From Coleofasciculus chthonoplastes F2-STO-03 (GTDB taxonomy: Bacteria > Cyanobacteriota > Cyanobacteriia > Cyanobacteriales > Coleofasciculaceae): a DNA stretch of 64,000 nt. A program made the position numbers and the translations under genes. The DNA lies in assembly GCA_040222015.1 (NCBI GenBank), contig JAVJWO010000041.1, positions 1 through 64,000 of the forward strand. The letters are read 5' to 3'. The notes under the pieces were generated by a model, which saw nothing but the letters and a program-made list of their open reading frames with translations, was not told the DNA's origin and ran no database searches. This document shows, in pieces, positions 4,187 through 14,180 of the stretch; within the stretch, counting starts at the first letter, position 1; every line of letters starts with the position of its first letter.

Positions 4187-4261
4187 CGGATAGCAAAAAC
4201 TGTTCTTGTTTCTAGTGCAAGAAGGCAGAAATAACGCCAGCAGCTAATATCTTCCCCAGCT

Positions 4262-4335
4262 TCCAGACGTAGCATGCTACGTCTCTACATGCTTCCTCAG
4301 CTTCCCCGGCTTCCAGACGTAGCTACGTCTCTACA
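4262..4335. repeat. Duplicated REP-like palindrome (AGACGTAGCATGCTACGTCTCTAC family)
   Basis: Two copies of ttccagacgtagc(atg)ctacgtctctacatg between convergent genes; relatives at 16157-16188 and 25890-25972. Confidence 0.6.
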
Positions 4336-4352
4336 TGACTCTCTCAGATTCC

Positions 4353-5120
4353 CTATTCCCGGTTTCCTAAGATTTCATCAGAATCGCCAATGGGTTGAAC
4401 TGAACCTGCGATCGGTTCTTGTTTAAGTTCTTCCAAATCTATGGCTTGTAATAAATAACGCCAAGCGAGAGGAAAATTATAGATTTGGGTTAAATCGGCT
4501 GAGATATCGTACCAAAGACGATTATCCCGATAAAATTCGATCCGATCCATCACCCAAGCCGTTGCTATCTTAGTTTCTAAACGCTGAGGATCAAGCCGTT
4601 CAATCACGCCTTGATGCCAAATGATTTTAGATGAATCTGTCGGATCATTAGTTGCACAATAAAGGGTGAATTGCCAACTATACTGTTTATTAACGTCTAG
4701 GGGATTGGCTGTCGTTGGTAGGCTAATCCTGACAAATCCTGGTGTTTCCGGAAGCTGGAAATTAACCTGATAGGTTCGATTTCCTTGCTGTAAATCTTCT
4801 AGAAAGAAAGCTCCTCGATTAATCATGTTACTCTGATAGGGAATATAAAACCAAAATGTGGGATATTCTTTTAATGTAAAGCCAGAAAACTTGACGCCGG
4901 AGTCGGTAATGGGTAATAACGGTGTAAACGGTTGTTCGGTCTGTTCACAAGGTCCACGAGTTCCGGCAGGTTTGCGATCATTATTCGGTCTATCCCGAAC
5001 GGGTGGATCTTGTTTAATACTTGCTAATTTTTGAATAGGATGTGCTTGAACCAGTGGTCGATGAATTGTCAATTCAAGAACTGTTATCGCCAAGATTAAA
5101 GCAAGTTTGCGTGCAATCAT
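4353..5120 (-). CDS. DUF928 domain protein (exported)
   Basis: Signal-like N-terminus from ATG 5120; AGTRGPC, TPLLP, PTFWFYIPY, YSWQFTLYC, LWYD motifs. Confidence 0.85.
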   Translation of the reverse strand: MIARKLALILAITVLELTIHRPLVQAHPIQKLASIKQDPPVRDRPNNDRKPAGTRGPCEQTEQPFTPLLPITDSGVKFSGFTLKEYPTFWFYIPYQSNMINRGAFFLEDLQQGNRTYQVNFQLPETPGFVRISLPTTANPLDVNKQYSWQFTLYCATNDPTDSSKIIWHQGVIERLDPQRLETKIATAWVMDRIEFYRDNRLWYDISADLTQIYNFPLAWRYLLQAIDLEELKQEPIAGSVQPIGDSDEILGNRE

Positions 5121-5133
5121 AGGTTTAAGGGGT

Positions 5134-7464
5134 TTAATCGGATCGCGGCGTTTTAAATGCCTGGTAAGCCACCAGACTTCCACTTGTCGCGAATACAGCT
5201 AGCGTTGCTGGAACCATGGGTAATATATTGCCAGTTTGAATGAAAATAAACCAGCTAATACCATTAATCATTATCATAGAGACTCCCACTGCTAATACCA
5301 GGCGTAATAGAGAATCCCGATAGTACCATGCGATCGCACCTCCAATAACTGACCCCATCCACACCCAAACCAAATCCCCCCATAAAGGTAAAAACGCCAG
5401 CAAGGGCCGTTCTCCCACAGCCGCATTAATAATCTGACTGACCATTTGACTATGCAGGAATAGCCCCCGCATTTCATGATTACCAGGCGTTTGGAATTCA
5501 TCTTTAATTGTGGGATCAGTTATGCCAATTAAAATAATTTTATCCTGCAAAAAATCCGGATTCACGCGATTGGCAAAAATATCACTCAGCGTTACTCGTT
5601 CTACCATGGTTTTTGGCAATTCTGGGGAACGATAATTAAGTAAGACTTGAAACCCTTCCAATCCGATACCACGCTGGTAAAATCCGGGGTTGGCATTTAA
5701 ATTTGTTAACGTCACTGAACCCAATTTCCACCGATCTTCGGAAATAAATTCAGGTGAGATTCCCTCGGCTTGCAGATAGTGTAGGGCTAATTGAAAACTC
5801 AGGGAATAGAAGGTGGAACAAGAGGATACGGCTGGCGGTTTCATGGCGATGAGATGACGCCGAACAATCCCATCTGGATCAACAACAATATCAGCAAATC
5901 CTAAGCGTTCCTTGGGGACTTCAGGGGGCGCAGCAACGCCTTCGGGGATTTGGGGAGACGGGATAACACAGATGGGAATCACGCGATCGCTCTTTTGCAG
6001 ATATTGTACCAATTCATCCCGCCCTTCCCCCTCTGGGCGATCGCGAAAGATATCTAAGCCGATGGCGCGGGGTTGATAGGTGTCCAGTTTTTGTAATAGT
6101 TTGAGCAGGGTGCGATCGTGTAGCGGATATTCACCGCCTAAATTGTTGATATCTTTAGCCGTTACCTCAACCATCAATAACCGAGGATCAAGGGATGGCG
6201 TGGGGCGCATTTCCAAGAGTTGGTCAAAGGCTTGCTGTTCCGTCGATTGCAACCAACCTAGCGATCGCACTCCCATGATTAAACTGGTTACCATGACACT
6301 CGCACCCAGTACCCATTGCCAACCTCGCCGTTTCCGCTGAACGGGTTTGGCGGTAGTGTCGTTAATCCAGTCGTTCCAGGTTGGCGGAACTTGGGTAGGA
6401 TTCTGGACAATTACGGGTAACCAACTCGCACAAGGGAATTGACTCTCTAATCCCTGTAATCGTTCTCTGGCGTCTCTGACGGCTAAATAGAAGGGTTGAC
6501 CTTGGGCAAAGGCAGTGAGAAAATACTTGAGGAACTCTTGCGCCACGCGATCGGGAACTAATTCCCGCATGACAATCATTTGCGGAATCTGGATATCATC
6601 CAGTTGTCGGGCTAAACCTAAGCCATCGCATGAGTTGAAAATAGCCAGTTTTAATCCTCGTTCTACGGCTTTTCTTAACGCATACCAGAGTTCATCAATA
6701 GTTAAACTATCGGTTTGATTAATATAAATCCGCCCGGTTTCCCCTTCGGTTTCACTATGTCCGGCAAAAAAAATGATGTCCCAATGTTTTTCCCAAAGTT
6801 GGTCGTTAATCTCGCGGCGGCTTTTTTCGACTAAAAAGGTAATATCGGTATGGGGTAAACTTTCAAGTAATTTGCGATCGCTTTCAATATCAATTCCCTG
6901 GCTATGACCAAGAATGGCTAAAATTTTTACTTTAGACGTGCGCTGATTTGAGGTGAATTGGGGAGGACGTTCAAACTGAGGATCAGTTAACGCCAGTTCC
7001 GCTTTCGGATAATGGTCAAAAAAATCCCACAAATGCCAAGGAAGTTTTTGTAAGTGCGGATCACTGGTGGATACTAGGAAGCGAATCGTATCCTGAGGAC
7101 TAAGGGCTTCCCGTAACCGTCGATCCAGGGGGCGAAACCCTTCCCCATCTAACCAGGTTCGCAAGCGATCGCCTAATTCATTGGCGGAGTCTTGACAGTC
7201 TCTCAGGCGCTGGCTTACTGAACCATCATAGATAATTTTTTTCGGTTTAATTCGATAGGGGGCGCTAATGCACCGATACTTATGCTGCCAATGAGACTGG
7301 ATGCGATCGGCAAATTCAGGCGCTGCATTTAATACCCCTTTGAGTTCAATATCTGGGGGGGATTCATCCCAACCAATGGCTAATGTGACCCGAAATCCAT
7401 GGCTTTGAAAATCACCATCAAGTTTCAAAATTACTAATTTTTTGTGGGTGGTGTCATTTGTCAT
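5134..7464 (-). CDS. CHAT (caspase/HetF-like) protease fused to a CHASE2 extracellular sensor domain
   Basis: LQKLPW, His-Cys dyad IIFFAGHS...LAIFNSCDG, SWLPV; TM helix; CHASE2 motifs AIGLDIFRD, GFADIVVDPDGIVRRH, KIILIG; three C-terminal TM helices. Confidence 0.9.
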   Translation of the reverse strand: MTNDTTHKKLVILKLDGDFQSHGFRVTLAIGWDESPPDIELKGVLNAAPEFADRIQSHWQHKYRCISAPYRIKPKKIIYDGSVSQRLRDCQDSANELGDRLRTWLDGEGFRPLDRRLREALSPQDTIRFLVSTSDPHLQKLPWHLWDFFDHYPKAELALTDPQFERPPQFTSNQRTSKVKILAILGHSQGIDIESDRKLLESLPHTDITFLVEKSRREINDQLWEKHWDIIFFAGHSETEGETGRIYINQTDSLTIDELWYALRKAVERGLKLAIFNSCDGLGLARQLDDIQIPQMIVMRELVPDRVAQEFLKYFLTAFAQGQPFYLAVRDARERLQGLESQFPCASWLPVIVQNPTQVPPTWNDWINDTTAKPVQRKRRGWQWVLGASVMVTSLIMGVRSLGWLQSTEQQAFDQLLEMRPTPSLDPRLLMVEVTAKDINNLGGEYPLHDRTLLKLLQKLDTYQPRAIGLDIFRDRPEGEGRDELVQYLQKSDRVIPICVIPSPQIPEGVAAPPEVPKERLGFADIVVDPDGIVRRHLIAMKPPAVSSCSTFYSLSFQLALHYLQAEGISPEFISEDRWKLGSVTLTNLNANPGFYQRGIGLEGFQVLLNYRSPELPKTMVERVTLSDIFANRVNPDFLQDKIILIGITDPTIKDEFQTPGNHEMRGLFLHSQMVSQIINAAVGERPLLAFLPLWGDLVWVWMGSVIGGAIAWYYRDSLLRLVLAVGVSMIMINGISWFIFIQTGNILPMVPATLAVFATSGSLVAYQAFKTPRSD

Positions 7465-7515
7465 TTGTCATTTTTCAGGGAACAGGGAATAGGGAACAGG
7501 GAATAGGGAACAGGC
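7453..7515. repeat. Heptamer short tandem repeats (STRR: TGTCATT; AACAGGG/AATAGGG)
   Basis: Visible directly; similar tracts near 9553-9587, 25715-25765, 43045-43180 and 62430-62492. Confidence 0.85.
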
Positions 7516-7652
7516 ACTAACGATAAATATAGCTATTTTGTAAAACTTAAAACTGGGGCGGGTTTAGTGTCATCAGGGTTAGGTAAGAAATGATAGTAGT
7601 CAAACGCGCCCCTACATACAACCATGCCCGAATAACGAAGCGAAGGGTCTAT

Positions 7653-8594
7653 TCAAATGATAAAGGTTTCCGTCATGCTGATATCAGCTAACGATACCCT
7701 AACTTTGAAGCATTCTCCGGGTTCTCCACTAAACTGTAATTGAATTTGCTTTGTGCTTCTGGCTTCAGCTTGCATTACGCTTTCTCCCCTGTCATCCAGA
7801 ATCATCAGTCGCAAATTTTTAGGCAGATAGGTTTGACCGTTAGTTGGATAGATTTCAACCGAAATATCGAGTTCTGATCCGGAGTTTGGTATCAAATTTA
7901 TGACTAATATGACTTGTTCATCATCATATCGTCGTCCTAATGTCAGCCGCTTACCGCGTGTAATTTTCAGATCGGATGGTTCGGATAAGTGGGTGGCTAT
8001 TTGCGTATACGTTCTAAAATTAAAAGCGAGTTCTGTTGGCGAGGAATCGAATAATGTTTCGACAGTCTGCCAACCAGCATCAAAAATATTTTGTAGCCAT
8101 TGACTAAGTTGTATTGGTTGTTGAGATGGGTTAATATGGTCTAATAAATGTTCCAGTGATCTAAGTTGACTTAGGGGGACTTCCTCGGTTTGAACGCTGG
8201 GTAAAAATCCCAGTAACTTGGCTTCAGTTAAGGCTTGATTGAATTCAACGGCTACATAACCAATCCGGTCAGACCAAACTTCTGCGGGGATATGACAGCT
8301 AGCGGCGTTGGGTAAGACGGGACGGCATTCTAATTTGCCCAGATCTTTAATCAATAAGTCGGCTGTATTAGTCAGGGTTTGCATAATTGGATTCCAACTA
8401 TCACTCGCCTGCCAGTTTGTCTGAATTTCTAGGCATTGTAGAGAGGTCTTGACCGCATAAACGGCTAACGTATTTAGGTAAACTTGTTTTGCCTTTTGGG
8501 GGCAATGCTTTTGGTGAAACTGTTGAGCGATTTGATGGGCTTCTAACGTTAGGGGTACGGTCAGCATTAGGGGTTCATTCGTGGTGTGGAACAT
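7653..8594 (-). CDS. DUF1822 family protein
   Basis: KAKQVYLNTLAVYAV, ADLLIKDLGKLECRPV, RIGYVAV, LSQWLQNIFDAGWQTVE, GECFKVRV, ETFII. Confidence 0.88.
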   Translation of the reverse strand: MFHTTNEPLMLTVPLTLEAHQIAQQFHQKHCPQKAKQVYLNTLAVYAVKTSLQCLEIQTNWQASDSWNPIMQTLTNTADLLIKDLGKLECRPVLPNAASCHIPAEVWSDRIGYVAVEFNQALTEAKLLGFLPSVQTEEVPLSQLRSLEHLLDHINPSQQPIQLSQWLQNIFDAGWQTVETLFDSSPTELAFNFRTYTQIATHLSEPSDLKITRGKRLTLGRRYDDEQVILVINLIPNSGSELDISVEIYPTNGQTYLPKNLRLMILDDRGESVMQAEARSTKQIQLQFSGEPGECFKVRVSLADISMTETFII

Positions 8595-8614
8595 TGTATT
8601 CTGTGCCTCAGGGA

Positions 8615-9265
8615 TTATGATGATAAGTATTCTCTTAACTTGGGACTAAATTTAGTTAAGCAACGCTGGTAGAAACTGCTTAAGGTTGAAATCTTAATTC
8701 CTAGTTCTTCAGAAATTTCTTTCCAGGAATAACCGGATAAAAGTTTCAAAGCTAAAAATTGGAAGTTGGCGGCAGGTTGATTTGACGTATAGGTTTGATT
8801 AAAGAGTCCTTCGGGGTCAGTTTCTAGATAGTGAATGATTTCTTGCGACAGGGAAGGCGTCAACTGCGGATTAACTTCGGCTGGATTGTTTTTCTCTAAG
8901 TCATCCAAGGTTAAACGCTTGACTCGTTTGGCATCGACTCCTTTATGCACGGTTGGCATCATAGAACGACTGGCTTCCATGAAGAATCGCTGCTTGAGCA
9001 GAAAGTTTACCCACTGTAAAACTTCAAAACTGGGATTATAGTCGTCAATCCTTTCGCAAATATAACAAAATAAACGTTGCTTGGCTTCATCATAAATATC
9101 CTCATAAAATCCGTGGAATTGTCCGGGATAGGGACGAGTCAGTTTACCTGACTGCTGAATGGCACCCAATAGCTTGGCTAAAGCTTGCTGTCGTTGTTTA
9201 CTAAGGGGAGGATGCTGCTGTGCTTCCTGTGCCAGTTGCTTTAACTGTTGGTCTATGACATTCAT
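8615..9265 (-). CDS. Sigma-70-like (ECF/HetZ-related) DNA-binding factor
   Basis: LKQLAQEAQQHPPLSKQRQQAL N-terminus, YICERIDDYNP...WVNFLL, C-terminal region-4 HTH WKEISEELGIKISTLSSFYQRCL. Confidence 0.8.
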   Translation of the reverse strand: MNVIDQQLKQLAQEAQQHPPLSKQRQQALAKLLGAIQQSGKLTRPYPGQFHGFYEDIYDEAKQRLFCYICERIDDYNPSFEVLQWVNFLLKQRFFMEASRSMMPTVHKGVDAKRVKRLTLDDLEKNNPAEVNPQLTPSLSQEIIHYLETDPEGLFNQTYTSNQPAANFQFLALKLLSGYSWKEISEELGIKISTLSSFYQRCLTKFSPKLREYLSS

Positions 9266-9328
9266 CGATAGCGGTAGGGTTGGTACATCAGTGACATGGG
9301 ATTGCGTTGATACACCGACTTCACTCTG

Positions 9329-9368
9329 TTCATAGAGGTCTCACGAACTCAAGGGCGATTTTATGCAA
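9329..9368 (-). promoter_or_regulatory. Bipartite motif copy 1, upstream of the sigma-like gene (TTGCATAAAAT-N14-TGAGACCTCTATGAA)
   Basis: Matches copy 2 at 9624-9663 with identical spacing. Confidence 0.55.
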
Positions 9369-9460
9369 GGTGGAACAAATCTTTACAAAAGTTTAACAAA
9401 AGCGGAAGGGAGAGTAGCGGCTAAGGAGCTGAGGGAGCTGGGGAAGCTGGGGGAAATTGT

Positions 9461-9521
9461 GTAGGGGCGGGTTTCACTACTATCTTTTCGGTTGCACCCA
9501 TAAGTAACTCGCACCCGCCCC
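9461..9521. repeat. ~60-bp GTAG-type REP/REPIN-like element (GTAGGGGCGGGTTT...ACCCGCCCC)
   Basis: Family members at 7555-7615 (reverse), 21924-21984, 24113-24175, 30499-30558, 37242-37300 and 46869-46930. Confidence 0.8.
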
Positions 9522-9592
9522 GACTTTACTTGCTTCTCAAGGGTAGCGAGTATGACCAATGACCAATGACCAATGACAAATGACCAATCGCT

Positions 9593-9610
9593 TATGTAAA
9601 GATTTGTAAC
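9593..9610 (-). promoter_or_regulatory. HLR1 (RpaB-binding) direct repeat
   Basis: Reverse complement reads GTTACAAA-TC-TTTACATA, a perfect match to (G/T)TTACA(T/A)(T/A)-N2-(G/T)TTACA(T/A)(T/A); an imperfect copy lies at ~9372-9399. Confidence 0.6.
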
Positions 9611-9623
9611 AAAAATCCGACTT

Positions 9624-9663
9624 TTGCATAAAATGCACCGGCTGAACTTGAGAACCTAATGAA
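9624..9663 (+). promoter_or_regulatory. Bipartite motif copy 2, upstream of the small divergent gene (TTGCATAAAAT-N14-TGAGAACCTAATGAA)
   Basis: 11/11 and 11/15 identity to the two blocks of copy 1, but only 4/14 in the spacer. Confidence 0.55.
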
Positions 9664-9685
9664 AGGTAAGATGGGGGCTAGAATC

Positions 9686-9928
9686 ATGTTGATTCGTGAG
9701 ATTGTTCAACAGGCACTAACGACACGCTATCTCACCAGCGAAGCCGAAGACCAACTGCGACGCTTACTCAGAAGTAAATACGACTCACAAGACCTCCGGG
9801 CATTCATGCAGTTACAAAATGCTGTAATGGAGGGTCAGGTGCAACAAGAGTCCCGCCCTTTTTTCGATAACTTCTTGATTTTCAGGGATGATAATACGGT
9901 AATTGTTGATTTGGCAGGAGTGAGTTGA
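9686..9928 (+). CDS. Small conserved cyanobacterial hypothetical protein
   Basis: MLIREIVQQALTTRYLTSEAEDQLRRLL...DLRAFMQLQNAVMEGQVQQESR resembles a widespread cyanobacterial small-protein family; ATG 9686 preferred. Confidence 0.75.
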   Translation: MLIREIVQQALTTRYLTSEAEDQLRRLLRSKYDSQDLRAFMQLQNAVMEGQVQQESRPFFDNFLIFRDDNTVIVDLAGVS

Positions 9929-11361: not shown

Positions 11362-11622
11362 TTAGGGTTGTCTCCTCACTTGTTTAATCAACGCCTTTAC
11401 TTGCCTATTCTTCCCCAACTCCCCCAAATCCGGATCAGTTTTGGAATCTGGATCAATGTTTGTACACTCAATATAAAACAGGTCAGGTACATAAAATTTG
11501 CACATTGGATCGGCATCAAGGTGAGAAAAAAGGGTATCGACTTTATCAGAGAGTGGATCGTCCACAAAGAGTTTGATCGCAACGCTGGCATCCACTACAC
11601 ATCTGAGTGGTGTGTATGTCAT
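11362..11622 (-). pseudogene. Truncated PIN/VapC toxin fused to a remnant of a TPR-gene 3' end
   Basis: VVDASVAIKLFV...FYVPDLFYIECTNI (PIN N-terminal half), then an abrupt switch to KTDPDLGELGKNRQVKALI, similar to the tail of the TPR gene at 14217-15347. Confidence 0.7.
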
Positions 11623-14180
11623 CTTGAGCGATCCTCCCGCAGCAGTGTTAGGCTATCAGGTAAGCCATGATCCGCAGGGTTAAATGTACGCCTACGCCGG
11701 ATATCTGCCAATATTTCTGCCTGAGATCGCTTTTTTTCTTCTACTGGGAAAGGTTTGCCATCATTGATAGTATAGATATCTTCTTCCGGGTCGTTTAGCA
11801 AATCAAAGGCTGGATTACTAGCGGTTGATTGCAGCCACTGATGTTCATCGATTTCCTCGTCTTCTTGCCAGTCTAGTTCATCGTCCAATGCTTCAGGTTC
11901 ATCTGAGTAGTTGAACATGAAAACAAATTTGCTTTTAGGCAAAATCAGCATTGGCAGATAGAGCGGTTGATCATCCCAGTTACGGTGTTTTTCACCTTTC
12001 TCATACAGAATAACCAGTGTCGGCACATCTGGATAATCGCGTTTGGGTTTCGTTAGCCATTCACTGGTGGCAAAACCATAGCTCGTCCATTTATCAGGTG
12101 CTTGGCGTTTCAAGTCCAATCCATCAGAGTTTTTACCCCGACGAACATTCAGTCGTCCTTTTTGAATTCCTTGAGCTTTTAATTGCTTCAGTGCTTGTTT
12201 AACTCGCTTGTCTTCCCACTTGCATCCACGAACAGGATTACTTCTCGTGTGAGACAGTATCTTAATCAAGACATCAATGTCTACTTCATAATATTCATTA
12301 TTGTCCTGATATCGAGCCAGAAGCTTATTTAGCTTTTCTGTGTCTTCCCTGACATCTGACGCTTTATAAAGCGGTGCGGCTGGAAAAATATGAGAGCCAG
12401 GGGCGAAGGCATCAATTTCGGCTGGATTCAAAACGTTAGAACGAGTTGGCTTTAGTTTGGAACCCACCCAAACGGGTTTAATCTTAATATTATTGGGATC
12501 ATCTCCAATTGCCTGACGCATTCCCTCATCAGCTTCATGAATTGCTCGGAAGTCTTCTAGAATATGCTCAGGCAAGAAAAGACGAGTCACATCTTTAAGT
12601 TCTTGGCGATAACCATACATCCGTGCGTGCTGATGTACAGTATCTATAACTTTTTGTTTAGCATCACGCCCATAGTAAGTCACCATCAACCCTTCAATGG
12701 TTACGCCTCGCCCTAGCCTGTTACCGCCGATAAGTATGTTCATACCGGGGCTATAATTTGGTTCTCTGTCTGGATTGTTAGCATTGATAATTTTTGTATC
12801 TATCACACTCCGTAATTCATATTTTAGGTCTTCAATAAGTTGAGCGATTGGTGGTAGATTAAGTGCAGTTTTACTCAACTCTTCATAAGCATCCCTTAAC
12901 CACTTCATCGCCTGGTTTTTCTTTGTAGTAGATGACTCTTCACGAATTGCTTTGTCAAGCTCTACAACAAAATCACTAATAATCTTTCCTAAATTTTTGT
13001 GAATATCCTGTTTGTAGCATATATGAGCCAGAAAAGAATATTTTTCATCCTCTGCCAATTGCATCTTGTAAATTGCCCCCAAAAAGAAGCAGCATAAAGC
13101 CTGTCTTAATCCAGCCGGAATATCCCAATTATTGCCTGGATTTATTTTTCCTGTCTGGTTTTTTAAGCGTTCTACTTCTTGGTCGTCAACTGTATAGCAA
13201 TAGGAACTATTTTCTTGAAAAAACAAATCGCCTCCCATGTAAGTTTCTCCGGGTTTGGGAAGGGCGGCACAAAAAGCTGGCTTACATGGATGATCAATAT
13301 TTTGGAGCAAAAGACTTTGAGGCGTAGCTGTAATTTGTAAATAGATATGATTGGCTACTTCTTTGCGAATTTTGCCAATTTTTTCAAAAATTGCACTATT
13401 TGGAACCGTATTTTTCCCTTTTTTTGCTTGCTTGGCTTCGTTGGTATTCAGACTAGCATTGTCAGCTTCATCATCAAATATTAAAGTGGGGACACTTCGG
13501 GCATTTGCCGACTTAAGGACTTGAAGCAAGTTATCGAGGTGATGTACATTTTTGGTGGAAACCAGAACGACGCCAGTATCCTTGATATAGGGTTCCAACT
13601 TATTTTTAGCAAAATCTTTTGGATCATTTTTCCATTTTTCCCAATCAAAGACTACAGGTCCCCCTTTAAGCTGATTATTGAAACGCACAGCCGTTTGTTT
13701 TCCCAGCCACGTATTGTCAGACGTTAATACAATGAAACAGCGAAATCCATTTTCTTGGGCAACTGCCAGCGTAGCAATGGTAGTATTAGTCTTTCCGCTT
13801 TGAACTCTACCATAGATTAGTCCAGTAGTGCCATACTGACTATAAGTACCCGCTTCTCTGTCCAGAAGATTCTCAAGCCTTTCCTTCGCTATGCAGAAAA
13901 TACCATCCTTATGACAAATCAGGGCTATGAATACTGAAAATTCAGGATACTGACTCTGTAATTTATCTAGGGCTGACGTTTCCTGACGGCTAAACGTGAA
14001 AGACCATGCCGACTTCGGTTTTTTGGAAACCTTGAATAGAATAGCGGACTTACTCTTTTTATTTTCTACTAAATATATCGATGGATGTATAAAAGAGGAA
14101 TGAGTAATTGTGAGCGGCTGCCCAGAATTCAGTAACCGCAAAAAGGCAGCGCCATAAAGGAATTCTTGATCGCTAATCAT
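11619..14180 (-). CDS. Chimeric Z1-domain / SF2 helicase-like protein with an extra N-terminal domain and antitoxin-like C-terminal fragments
   Basis: YGRVQSGKT, IFDDEADNASLN, ITATPQS, LGRGVTIEGL, DTVHQHARMYGYR; tails WLQSTASNPAFDLLNDPEEDIYTINDGKPF and LPDSLTLLREDRSR. Confidence 0.82.
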   Translation of the reverse strand: MISDQEFLYGAAFLRLLNSGQPLTITHSSFIHPSIYLVENKKSKSAILFKVSKKPKSAWSFTFSRQETSALDKLQSQYPEFSVFIALICHKDGIFCIAKERLENLLDREAGTYSQYGTTGLIYGRVQSGKTNTTIATLAVAQENGFRCFIVLTSDNTWLGKQTAVRFNNQLKGGPVVFDWEKWKNDPKDFAKNKLEPYIKDTGVVLVSTKNVHHLDNLLQVLKSANARSVPTLIFDDEADNASLNTNEAKQAKKGKNTVPNSAIFEKIGKIRKEVANHIYLQITATPQSLLLQNIDHPCKPAFCAALPKPGETYMGGDLFFQENSSYCYTVDDQEVERLKNQTGKINPGNNWDIPAGLRQALCCFFLGAIYKMQLAEDEKYSFLAHICYKQDIHKNLGKIISDFVVELDKAIREESSTTKKNQAMKWLRDAYEELSKTALNLPPIAQLIEDLKYELRSVIDTKIINANNPDREPNYSPGMNILIGGNRLGRGVTIEGLMVTYYGRDAKQKVIDTVHQHARMYGYRQELKDVTRLFLPEHILEDFRAIHEADEGMRQAIGDDPNNIKIKPVWVGSKLKPTRSNVLNPAEIDAFAPGSHIFPAAPLYKASDVREDTEKLNKLLARYQDNNEYYEVDIDVLIKILSHTRSNPVRGCKWEDKRVKQALKQLKAQGIQKGRLNVRRGKNSDGLDLKRQAPDKWTSYGFATSEWLTKPKRDYPDVPTLVILYEKGEKHRNWDDQPLYLPMLILPKSKFVFMFNYSDEPEALDDELDWQEDEEIDEHQWLQSTASNPAFDLLNDPEEDIYTINDGKPFPVEEKKRSQAEILADIRRRRTFNPADHGLPDSLTLLREDRSR

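Follow-up and report, generated by a model that had tools for sequence, protein, structure and literature searches.

The closest tested precedent for the four-gene cassette described here, which lies in a 64,000-nucleotide (nt) stretch of the genome of the filamentous cyanobacterium Coleofasciculus chthonoplastes F2-STO-03 (assembly GCA_040222015.1, contig JAVJWO010000041.1, positions 1 to 64,000 of the forward strand; hereafter the window), is HetZ/PatU3/HetF, a system that is very close and follows the same logic as proposed below. HetZ is a sigma factor of the extracytoplasmic function (ECF) type with three inserted domains, which take over from sigma2 the reading and opening of the -10 region; the gene directly downstream encodes PatU3 (called PatU in most species), which binds and inhibits HetZ and is likely an anti-sigma factor (PMC13342950). 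HetF consists of a cytoplasmic CHAT domain, a transmembrane (TM) helix and periplasmic TPRs, and cuts PatU3 after Arg117 (TNYR|SPET; PMC9457339). The sequence-only reading from which this analysis started had cited the cut of PatU3 by HetF and the cut of Csx30 by Csx29, which frees CASP-sigma, and both precedents are indeed in print (PMC9457339 and PMC10028731, respectively).

The cassette itself belongs to a kind that was published in 2021 on the basis of comparative genomics (Kaur, Iyer, Burroughs and Aravind, eLife 2021; PMC8195603). The proteases described there have a constant N-terminal alpha+beta domain, named EACC2, followed by a caspase domain and a variable C terminus, for which CHASE2 with TM helices is named as an example, and their neighbours include genes for an ECF sigma factor and for DUF1822. 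In the same paper self-cleavage induced by a stimulus is proposed, with the sigma factor as the last step or output, and related systems are framed as apoptosis and immunity modules. Our literature search, which covered papers and not their supplements, found no experimental study of the cassette, so that the route, called uncharacterised in the sequence-only reading, is so experimentally; as a genomic arrangement it had been described by Kaur et al. (PMC8195603). We propose, and give an even chance of being right, that the cassette in the window is a one-operon transmembrane module in which a dedicated, divergent ECF-type sigma factor would be controlled by regulated proteolysis, with the DUF1822 protein as the predicted cleavable two-part adaptor.

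The four open reading frames (ORFs), assigned by ORF calls and matches to Pfam and NCBIfam, are neighbours on the minus strand and are all co-oriented, as had been read from the sequence. They encode a sigma-like protein of 216 amino acids (aa) (8615..9265), a DUF1822 protein of 313 aa (7653..8594), a receptor protease of 776 aa with CHAT and CHASE2 domains (5134..7464) and a DUF928 protein of 255 aa when read from Met22 (4353..5120). The first two are separated by 20 nt, exactly the spacing claimed before. The same gene order recurs in four Coleofasciculus assemblies, the DUF1822 proteins of which are 94-96% identical at this locus, and in many other genera.

Conservation of the linkage had been set as a check, and neighbours were counted in two samples. 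Sample A comprises 36 loci retrieved with one DUF1822 peptide pattern and is biased toward close relatives, whereas sample B has one locus per genome, the PF08852 match with the highest score, for the first 40 distinct genomes listed in a phylum-wide search, in which PF08852 was found in 139 of 201 Cyanobacteriota genomes and in 60 of 96 genera, often in several copies. Domains were called with hidden Markov models (HMMs) that we derived from the window proteins and refined in iterations over the loci, the HMM for long sigma factors being seeded with 12 ORFs that score 86-125 bits on TIGR02937 (NCBIfam). ORFs shorter than 250 aa were excluded from the neighbourhood counts, which removed L031 and the broken L055 (L-numbers denote loci examined and C-numbers contigs of this Coleofasciculus genome).

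A sigma-family gene was found directly upstream of the DUF1822 gene in 37 of the 40 loci of sample B, in 26 of the 31 full-length genes with flank in sample A (with 3 more within 4 kb) and for three of the four DUF1822 genes of this genome. The coupling is tight: among 66 adjacent sigma-DUF1822 pairs the gap is at most 60 nt in 52, and there is overlap in 18. Sizes are paired as well, short sigma factors (179-367 aa) having partners with a median length of 323 aa and long ones (385-614 aa) partners with a median of 416 aa. Genes that directly follow ECF sigma genes and are coupled to them usually encode anti-sigma factors. An EACC2-CHAT gene is next downstream of DUF1822 in 21/40 (B), 30/33 (A) and 3/4 (this genome). 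It can be replaced by other proteases, like TPR-CHAT (L052, L050, L018), a Peptidase_C14 caspase (L048) or a trypsin-like protease (L074), and at some loci without it no protease was seen and only DUF4870 or an oxidoreductase is present. The linkage of the four genes is conserved across genera and far from chance. Their description as one unit needs adjustment, as sigma and DUF1822 also occur with other proteases or with none adjacent; since in sample B the sigma gene is nearly always present upstream and the protease downstream in about half of the loci, the core is formed by sigma and DUF1822, with the protease as a frequent third part.

This genome contains only four PF08852 genes. Besides the one in the window, there is a copy on C159, where a 610-aa protein with a weak sigma match is followed by DUF1822, CHAT-CHASE2 and DUF928, one on C113, where a 179-aa sigma is followed by DUF1822 and CHAT-TPR and DUF928 is lacking, and one on C4, where a 484-aa protein that matches nothing precedes DUF1822 and there is no protease. 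Variation is found elsewhere too. At L058 (4103-14400) two full cassettes stand back to back with a single sigma gene between them, the order being DUF928, CHAT-CHASE2 and DUF1822 on one strand and sigma, DUF1822, CHAT-CHASE2 and DUF928 on the other, and L055 (7938-11415) holds a decayed cassette with an in-frame TAG in DUF1822 and short fragments of CHAT, CHASE2 and DUF928. Genomes of family f26, which belong to another class of the same phylum and measure 1.6-2.3 Mb, have one weak PF08852 match each in 71 of 82 cases (E 1e-4 to 1e-13); these could represent a distant DUF1822 relative outside the cyanobacteria proper, in a lineage of non-photosynthetic genome size.

The 216-aa protein is read as a very divergent ECF-type sigma factor. 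The matches to Sigma70_r4_2 in Pfam (21.1 bits, cut-off 25.7) and to TIGR02937 (20.7 bits, cut-off 42.9) are sub-threshold, and Pfam gives no Sigma70_r2 match in the window protein; paralogue L002 reaches 23.7 bits for that domain, against a cut-off of 24. The AlphaFold model, with a mean predicted local distance difference test score (pLDDT) of 80.2, has two helical domains joined by a disordered linker (residues 107-137), the N-terminal one sigma2-like and the C-terminal one sigma4-like with a helix-turn-helix (HTH). Nearly all top rows of a Foldseek search with this model are ECF sigma factors (1or7, E 0.018, prob 0.99), and single-domain matches include the sigma2 domain 2o7g (TMt 0.67) and 5or5 (TMt 0.57). 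For a profile of 42 sigma relatives the best PDB sequences are ECF RpoE (2q1z, E 0.01) and SigK (4nqw, E 0.17), and many of the 365 database homologues are labelled sigma-70 family by NCBI. The HetZ models NF037963 and NF037964/5 gave no match to the protein at E up to 0.01. An orphan paralogue, 58% identical, is located on C216 (112926-113579; L004 5927-6580) without a nearby DUF1822 or protease gene, its neighbours being RRXRR, CP12-CBS and histidine kinase genes, and many of the 365 homologues, at 57-76% identity, are possibly orthologous to either the window or the C216 copy.

The DUF1822 protein matches PF08852 over profile positions 1-370 (233.6 bits, E 5e-69). Its model (pLDDT 83.4) has an alpha/beta N domain (approximately residues 10-155), a Trp-rich helix (LSQWLQNIFDAGWQ, 163-176), a flexible linker and a C domain that forms an eight-strand, immunoglobulin-like (Ig-like) beta-sandwich (211-312); the segment 185-194 has a pLDDT below 50. 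As modelled, DUF1822 is not a TPR protein, and the HEAT repeats seen in the family are inserts in long forms only. Foldseek returned only generic Ig-like sandwiches for the model. In VIA-align the best matches of the N domain, over residues ~20-160, are PD-(D/E)xK nucleases, namely I-Ssp6803I (2ost, Z 9.0, root-mean-square deviation 3.3 over 113 residues), Hjc (1ob8, Z 8.2; 1gef, 7.5), D212 (2w8m, 7.2), NhoI (8q5n, 6.6) and 2wcw (6.6), Z values that are barely above the level usual for unexplained models. Because one fold class keeps reappearing among these matches, the N domain is most like a restriction-endonuclease-like fold, as far as the model goes. The alignment shows conserved residues in this domain (D78, E89-x-R91 and E105), which could be the relic or a variant of a nuclease site. 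No Pfam nuclease family was found for DUF1822 even at E up to 1, the search of PDB sequences with the DUF1822 profile gave a single match, charybdin (E 0.056), and nothing usable was obtained for the N domain from the Atlas.

At the boundary of the two halves, in the low-confidence loop, lies Arg194 (motif AFNFR; codon 8013..8015, minus strand), followed by a segment of very variable length. Of 79 aligned DUF1822 proteins, 69 have R or K at this position, 46/54 of those with a CHAT neighbour and 23/25 of those without. Because HetF cuts PatU3 after Arg117, we regard Arg194 as a candidate cleavage site by analogy, the conservation and the low-confidence loop being consistent with this role.

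DUF1822 can be read as modular. In three counted relatives the C half is found behind a different front end, an Xre-type HTH (L028, 8599-9615), a TRADD-like_N domain (L029, 8032-9429) or both (L040, 8455-9435); in L028 and L029 the Pfam profile is matched from position ~198 or 227 to 370, and the C half of L040 was detected only by an HMM built for this analysis. All three lack an upstream sigma gene, and in L028 and L029 an EACC2-CHAT gene comes next. A 173-aa ORF in L031, which was not counted, has the C half only, with no sigma-family ORF in the locus and a protease gene next. Because the variants with only the C half lack the sigma gene and retain the protease (L028, L029), the N half goes with the sigma factor and the C half with the protease.

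The receptor protease combines CHAT (PF12770, residues 193-341, 43.5 bits against a cut-off of 24, E 3.5e-11) and CHASE2 (PF05226, residues 393-709, 208.8 bits, E 1.3e-61). The His-Cys dyad noticed earlier is present in the motifs AGHS (234-237) and NSCDG (277-281), and all 53 EACC2-CHAT proteins in the alignment have both His236 (codon 6757-6759, minus strand) and Cys279 (codon 6628-6630, minus strand). With an HMM made from residues 1-185 the same N-terminal region is detected in each of the 53 EACC2-CHAT neighbours used, and by architecture and context this conserved domain (~1-185) is probably EACC2. Behind the CHAT region (~190-365) hydropathy shows a KRR cluster and a hydrophobic helix (~382-403), and three more helices follow at ~689-765. 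Because one helix precedes and three follow CHASE2, with KRR on the cytoplasmic side, the N-terminal domain and CHAT are predicted by hydropathy to be cytoplasmic and CHASE2 to be outside the cell, in line with the TM helix and extracellular CHASE2 of the sequence-only reading. The HetF equivalog NF045509 matches the CHAT core only (25.2 bits, cut-off 1200). Another CHAT-CHASE2 protein of this genome, the fourth, measures 821 aa (C134:56547-59012; L082 4548-7013), has a weak match to the N-terminal HMM and has no DUF1822 neighbour.

The last protein matches PF06051 (137.4 bits, E 6e-40). The longest ORF (4353..5183, minus strand) has a GTG start at 5183, which would imply a 50-nt overlap with the upstream gene; a signal-peptide-like sequence begins at Met22 (MIARKLALILAITVL..VQA) with a hydrophobic stretch at 22-36, and Met22 is most likely the start. 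From there, the gene begins 13 nt past the CHAT-CHASE2 stop, and 255-aa orthologues in L006 and L007 begin at 4-13 nt. The export claimed for DUF928 is thus supported by hydropathy. DUF928 is the next gene for 38 of 40 EACC2-CHAT genes with CHASE2 and for 0 of 12 without CHASE2, three EACC2-CHAT genes with short flanks having been dropped from this count. By tblastn this genome has ~20 CHASE2 genes and ~18 DUF928 genes, and on C67, C46, C30 and C10 DUF928-CHASE2 pairs occur without CHAT. Because of these counts and of the CHAT-less pairs, DUF928 belongs to CHASE2 and not to the sigma/protease part; its place in the set holds in so far as it stands next to the CHASE2-bearing protease, and has to be widened in so far as it also stands beside CHASE2 genes that lack CHAT. 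A CHASE2 gene that adjoins a DUF928 gene was reported in Nostoc punctiforme as well (PMC5587647).

Upstream of the sigma gene we found a promoter-like motif, TGTAAAGA-N13-TTGCATAAAA (9359..9387, minus strand), which ends 93 nt before the start codon and is kept at this place in four sister strains, in L020 and in L074, and in looser form in L016 and L011. The only match of the composite pattern in the 7.7-Mb genome is the operon itself, and the motif may be the autoregulated promoter of the operon. Counts of 6-mers over 28 upstream regions yielded AT-rich words only, and scans with terminator and promoter consensus sequences gave no excess over shuffled sequence. Metatranscriptome contigs from four RNA-labelled runs, ~96% alike, lie on 5981-9402, and a single contig of 1,966 nt on 7485-9402 spans DUF1822 and the sigma gene; RNA-labelled libraries can contain DNA, contigs show neither transcripts nor transcript ends, and we take these only as weakly suggestive that a close relative expresses the genes. 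No transcript start can be read from the contig ends at 9402, which fall on a repeat, and most of 4414-5862 has no contig from the four runs, which is uninformative for expression of DUF928 and of the CHASE2 end.

The proposal of a protease-controlled sigma factor draws on synteny, tight coupling, paired size classes, alternative proteases, domain logic, Arg194, the dyad, the DUF928-CHASE2 link and three tested precedents, HetZ/PatU3/HetF, Csx29/Csx30/CASP-sigma and DdvA/DdvS, with the metatranscriptome contigs as a weak hint. In this scheme the DUF1822 N domain would hold the sigma factor, either by inhibition or by retention at the membrane, and the C-terminal beta-sandwich would dock on the protease or on its N-terminal domain. 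CHAT would be switched on when CHASE2 senses a ligand, DUF928 acting as a periplasmic co-receptor or modulator, and would then cut the flexible DUF1822 linker, most likely after Arg194. The freed sigma factor would transcribe its own operon from TGTAAAGA-N13-TTGCATAAAA and possibly other targets. A more far-reaching version, which we put forward tentatively and consider rather less probable, has DUF1822 as a new kind of cleavable sigma tether, in which a minimal ECF-like sigma factor would be held by a nuclease-fold N domain, the Ig-like C domain would dock on the cytoplasmic face of the receptor and a ligand of CHASE2/DUF928 would trigger the cut in the Arg linker, with release of the sigma factor. 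The developmental switch HetZ-PatU-HetF would then belong to this ancient cyanobacterial module too, as a member that has diverged and lost its linkage.

A relation between PatU and DUF1822 touches this last part. The genome has its own HetZ-PatU pair (C130:2249-4487), in which HetZ (665.8 bits, NF037963) is followed by PatU, and in the Atlas the protein downstream of HetZ is named PatU (0.97), its nearest non-PatU cluster being a DUF1822 cluster (0.85, 181 shared features). In hhalign the C-terminal sandwiches of all three DUF1822 classes align with the C terminus of PatU at P 0.011-0.065, versus 0.10-0.39 for reversed PatU, and a Nostoc DUF1822 (L017) has AFRSPET at the place of Arg194. The cleavage-site motif of PatU3 was found in no DUF1822, and the looser [YF]R[ST]P in two proteins only. 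PF08852 finds no PatU in this genome, none of the four genes matched being PatU, and hhalign gave a probability of 0.9-4% for DUF1822 versus PatU. The idea that DUF1822 is the PatU family was not adopted, given that PF08852 misses PatU and hhalign stays at or below 4%, and homology of the two is a weak lead. An identification as HetZ of the sigma factors of 390-450 aa that stand beside DUF1822 proteins of ~390 aa was rejected, as their best model is TIGR02937 and HetZ is located elsewhere; the long sigma of L041, the only one searched, has no PDB sequence match. Other HetZ relatives of this non-heterocystous genome are a HetZ-like protein (C213:7655-8695, 507.7 bits) and HetZ-related protein 2 (C163:666-1838), the latter followed by a 558-aa MshEN-domain protein.

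Several observations weigh against control of the sigma factor by cleavage of DUF1822. The sigma-like protein misses the curated cut-offs of all sigma models in Pfam and NCBIfam and its fold matches are weak (best Foldseek E 0.018), the DUF1822 N domain resembles a nuclease fold and no known anti-sigma domain, an effector or a co-factor that binds DNA being other possible roles, and the conserved Arg194 could have a structural role. An adjoining EACC2-CHAT gene is missing at 19 of the 40 sampled sigma-DUF1822 loci, and proteolysis is therefore not necessarily obligatory. A whole-genome search with the composite motif gave one match and no regulon. In addition, Kaur et al. propose self-cleavage of the protease and not cleavage of DUF1822 (PMC8195603). 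Following their framing, the cassette would be a conflict or programmed-death system in which the caspase cleaves itself on a stimulus, the DUF1822 N domain is a nuclease effector freed or activated by the protease and the sigma factor only boosts expression. The likeness of the N domain to I-Ssp6803I, the Hjc resolvases, D212 and NhoI (Z 9.0 to 6.6) fits this, as do its conserved acidic and basic residues (D78, E89-x-R91 and E105), the TRADD-N domain that replaces it in some relatives, the apoptosis and immunity modules among related systems (PMC8195603) and a Z1/helicase gene with PADLOC matches at 2.4 kb. However, the R of E-x-R stands at the place of a K in the nuclease family, the motif varies between subfamilies, no Pfam nuclease family is matched at E up to 1, and none of the four proteins matches a family of PADLOC-DB 2.0 at E up to 0.001. 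DUF1822 is also tied more tightly to the sigma gene (37/40) than to any protease (21/40), and an extracellular CHASE2 with a secreted partner suits environmental signalling better than the sensing of intracellular invaders; we consider this explanation unlikely.

DUF1822 could also be a positive partner of the sigma factor, a co-factor that binds DNA or RNA polymerase and offsets the degenerate sigma2, in which case the protease would end or tune the response by degrading DUF1822 or the sigma factor. The gene that follows an ECF sigma gene usually encodes an anti-sigma factor, with PatU3 and Csx30 as examples, and this makes a positive partner improbable in our judgement; on the other side stand the very divergent sigma2, with region 4 as the only one seen by Pfam in the window protein, the nuclease-like N domain, which is swapped for an HTH in variants without sigma and thereby points to DNA binding, and the precedent of HetZ for outsourced reading of the -10 region (PMC13342950). 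Finally, the genes might be neighbours by descent that serve separate pathways, with CHASE2-CHAT and DUF928 as an envelope-signalling unit and sigma-DUF1822 as another. DUF928-CHASE2 pairs without CHAT or sigma, sigma-DUF1822 pairs without an adjoining protease and the 188-nt, repeat-bearing spacer between DUF1822 and the protease gene in this strain agree with such a split. We nevertheless hold it to be very unlikely: of 77 DUF1822 genes with sufficient flanking sequence, 54 are directly followed by an EACC2-CHAT gene, the gap between the two is 10-17 nt in L005 and L008, and where the N half and the sigma gene have been replaced, the C half of DUF1822 is still found with the protease.

That spacer probably arose by insertion of a small mobile repeat within the operon, because the distance from DUF1822 to the protease gene is 188 nt with a repeat element here and 10-17 nt in L005 and L008, which are sister strains. 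Three intergenic stretches (7465-7652, 9382-9588 and 4207-4413) contain copies of short dispersed repeats. The types found around the operon include an element with GGGGCG..CGCCCC ends, TTCCCTA/GGGAA runs and ATGACAA runs, and the intergenic repeats have a very high depth in metatranscriptome contigs, with contigs joining between repeats.

Beyond the promoter-like motif lies a divergent ORF of 89 aa (9659..9928, plus strand), the membership of which in the system is uncertain. It has zero matches in Pfam, NCBIfam and PHROGs, is kept at this place, likewise divergent, in L005-L008, L009 and L010, and is ~63% identical to two paralogues of this genome, on C105 and C176. Further away, an 853-aa Z1-domain protein (11619-14180, minus strand) matches Helicase_II (E 3.7e-97) and MzaC in PADLOC. 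The 86-aa ORF beside it (11362-11622, minus strand) starts like a PIN domain by eye and has no PHROGs or PADLOC family, and both are flanked by TPR genes. The surroundings of the Z1 gene may be a defence-type neighbourhood.

Multicellular cyanobacteria are rich in caspase-like proteases, and to our knowledge HetF is the only one of these with a known substrate. If the more far-reaching version is true, sigma factors gated by caspases would form a whole family, in which sensors (CHASE2, TPR, kinase) and outputs (sigma, HTH, TRADD-N) are interchangeable and which would lie behind cell-cell and environmental signalling in cyanobacteria. With sensor, protease, presumed substrate and transcription factor in a single widespread operon, the cassette is a compact test case that could reveal how a bacterial caspase relative conveys an extracellular signal to transcription and what the roles of CHASE2, DUF928 and DUF1822 are. 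The modular picture yields precise units for this, namely the Arg linker, the sigma-linked N domain and the protease-linked C domain.

A general likeness to the proposal is offered by RseA/DegS/RseP, where an envelope signal leads through site-specific proteolysis to release of an ECF sigma factor (summarised in PMC10028731). There, serine and metalloproteases act on an anti-sigma factor in the membrane, whereas here the protease is a clan CD cysteine protease and is itself the membrane protein. In DdvA-DdvS of Myxococcus xanthus a transmembrane CHAT protein controls an ECF sigma factor, with proteolysis as the proposed trigger (PMC11506125). DdvA is itself the anti-sigma factor, with a zinc-binding cytoplasmic domain and a periplasmic TPR-CHAT that has an incomplete active site (PMC11506125); the CHAT domain here is predicted to be cytoplasmic and its dyad is complete, and the partner of the sigma factor is a soluble protein of its own. 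Csx29 (TPR-CHAT), Csx30 and CASP-sigma of type III-E CRISPR resemble the proposed scheme, as an ECF-like sigma factor is bound there by an inhibitor of two domains and CHAT relieves the inhibition by a cut in a flexible loop of this inhibitor; they differ in the trigger, which is target RNA bound by Cas7-11 within the cell (PMC10028731) and here presumably an extracellular ligand. A search of the PDB with the DUF1822 profile found no Csx30 at E up to 1.

The EACC2-caspase systems of Kaur et al. (PMC8195603) have the same architecture, the same ECF sigma and DUF1822 neighbours and the sigma factor as output. DUF1822 is a TPR protein in that description, whereas our model has a nuclease-like alpha/beta domain and a beta-sandwich; the main text of the paper, which is purely comparative and has no experiments, does not contain the term DUF928, which is part of the cassette here. 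With HetZ-PatU3/PatU-HetF of heterocyst-forming and other filamentous cyanobacteria the cassette shares an ECF-type sigma factor with the inhibitor gene (both putative here) directly downstream, co-transcription being known there (PMC13342950), and a membrane-anchored protease with an N-terminal cytoplasmic CHAT and a domain outside, which in the case of HetF cuts the inhibitor after Arg (PMC9457339). HetZ has insertion domains that the window sigma lacks, HetF has periplasmic TPRs where the window protease has CHASE2, and hetF is unlinked from hetZ-patU, whereas the genes in the window stand together in one operon.

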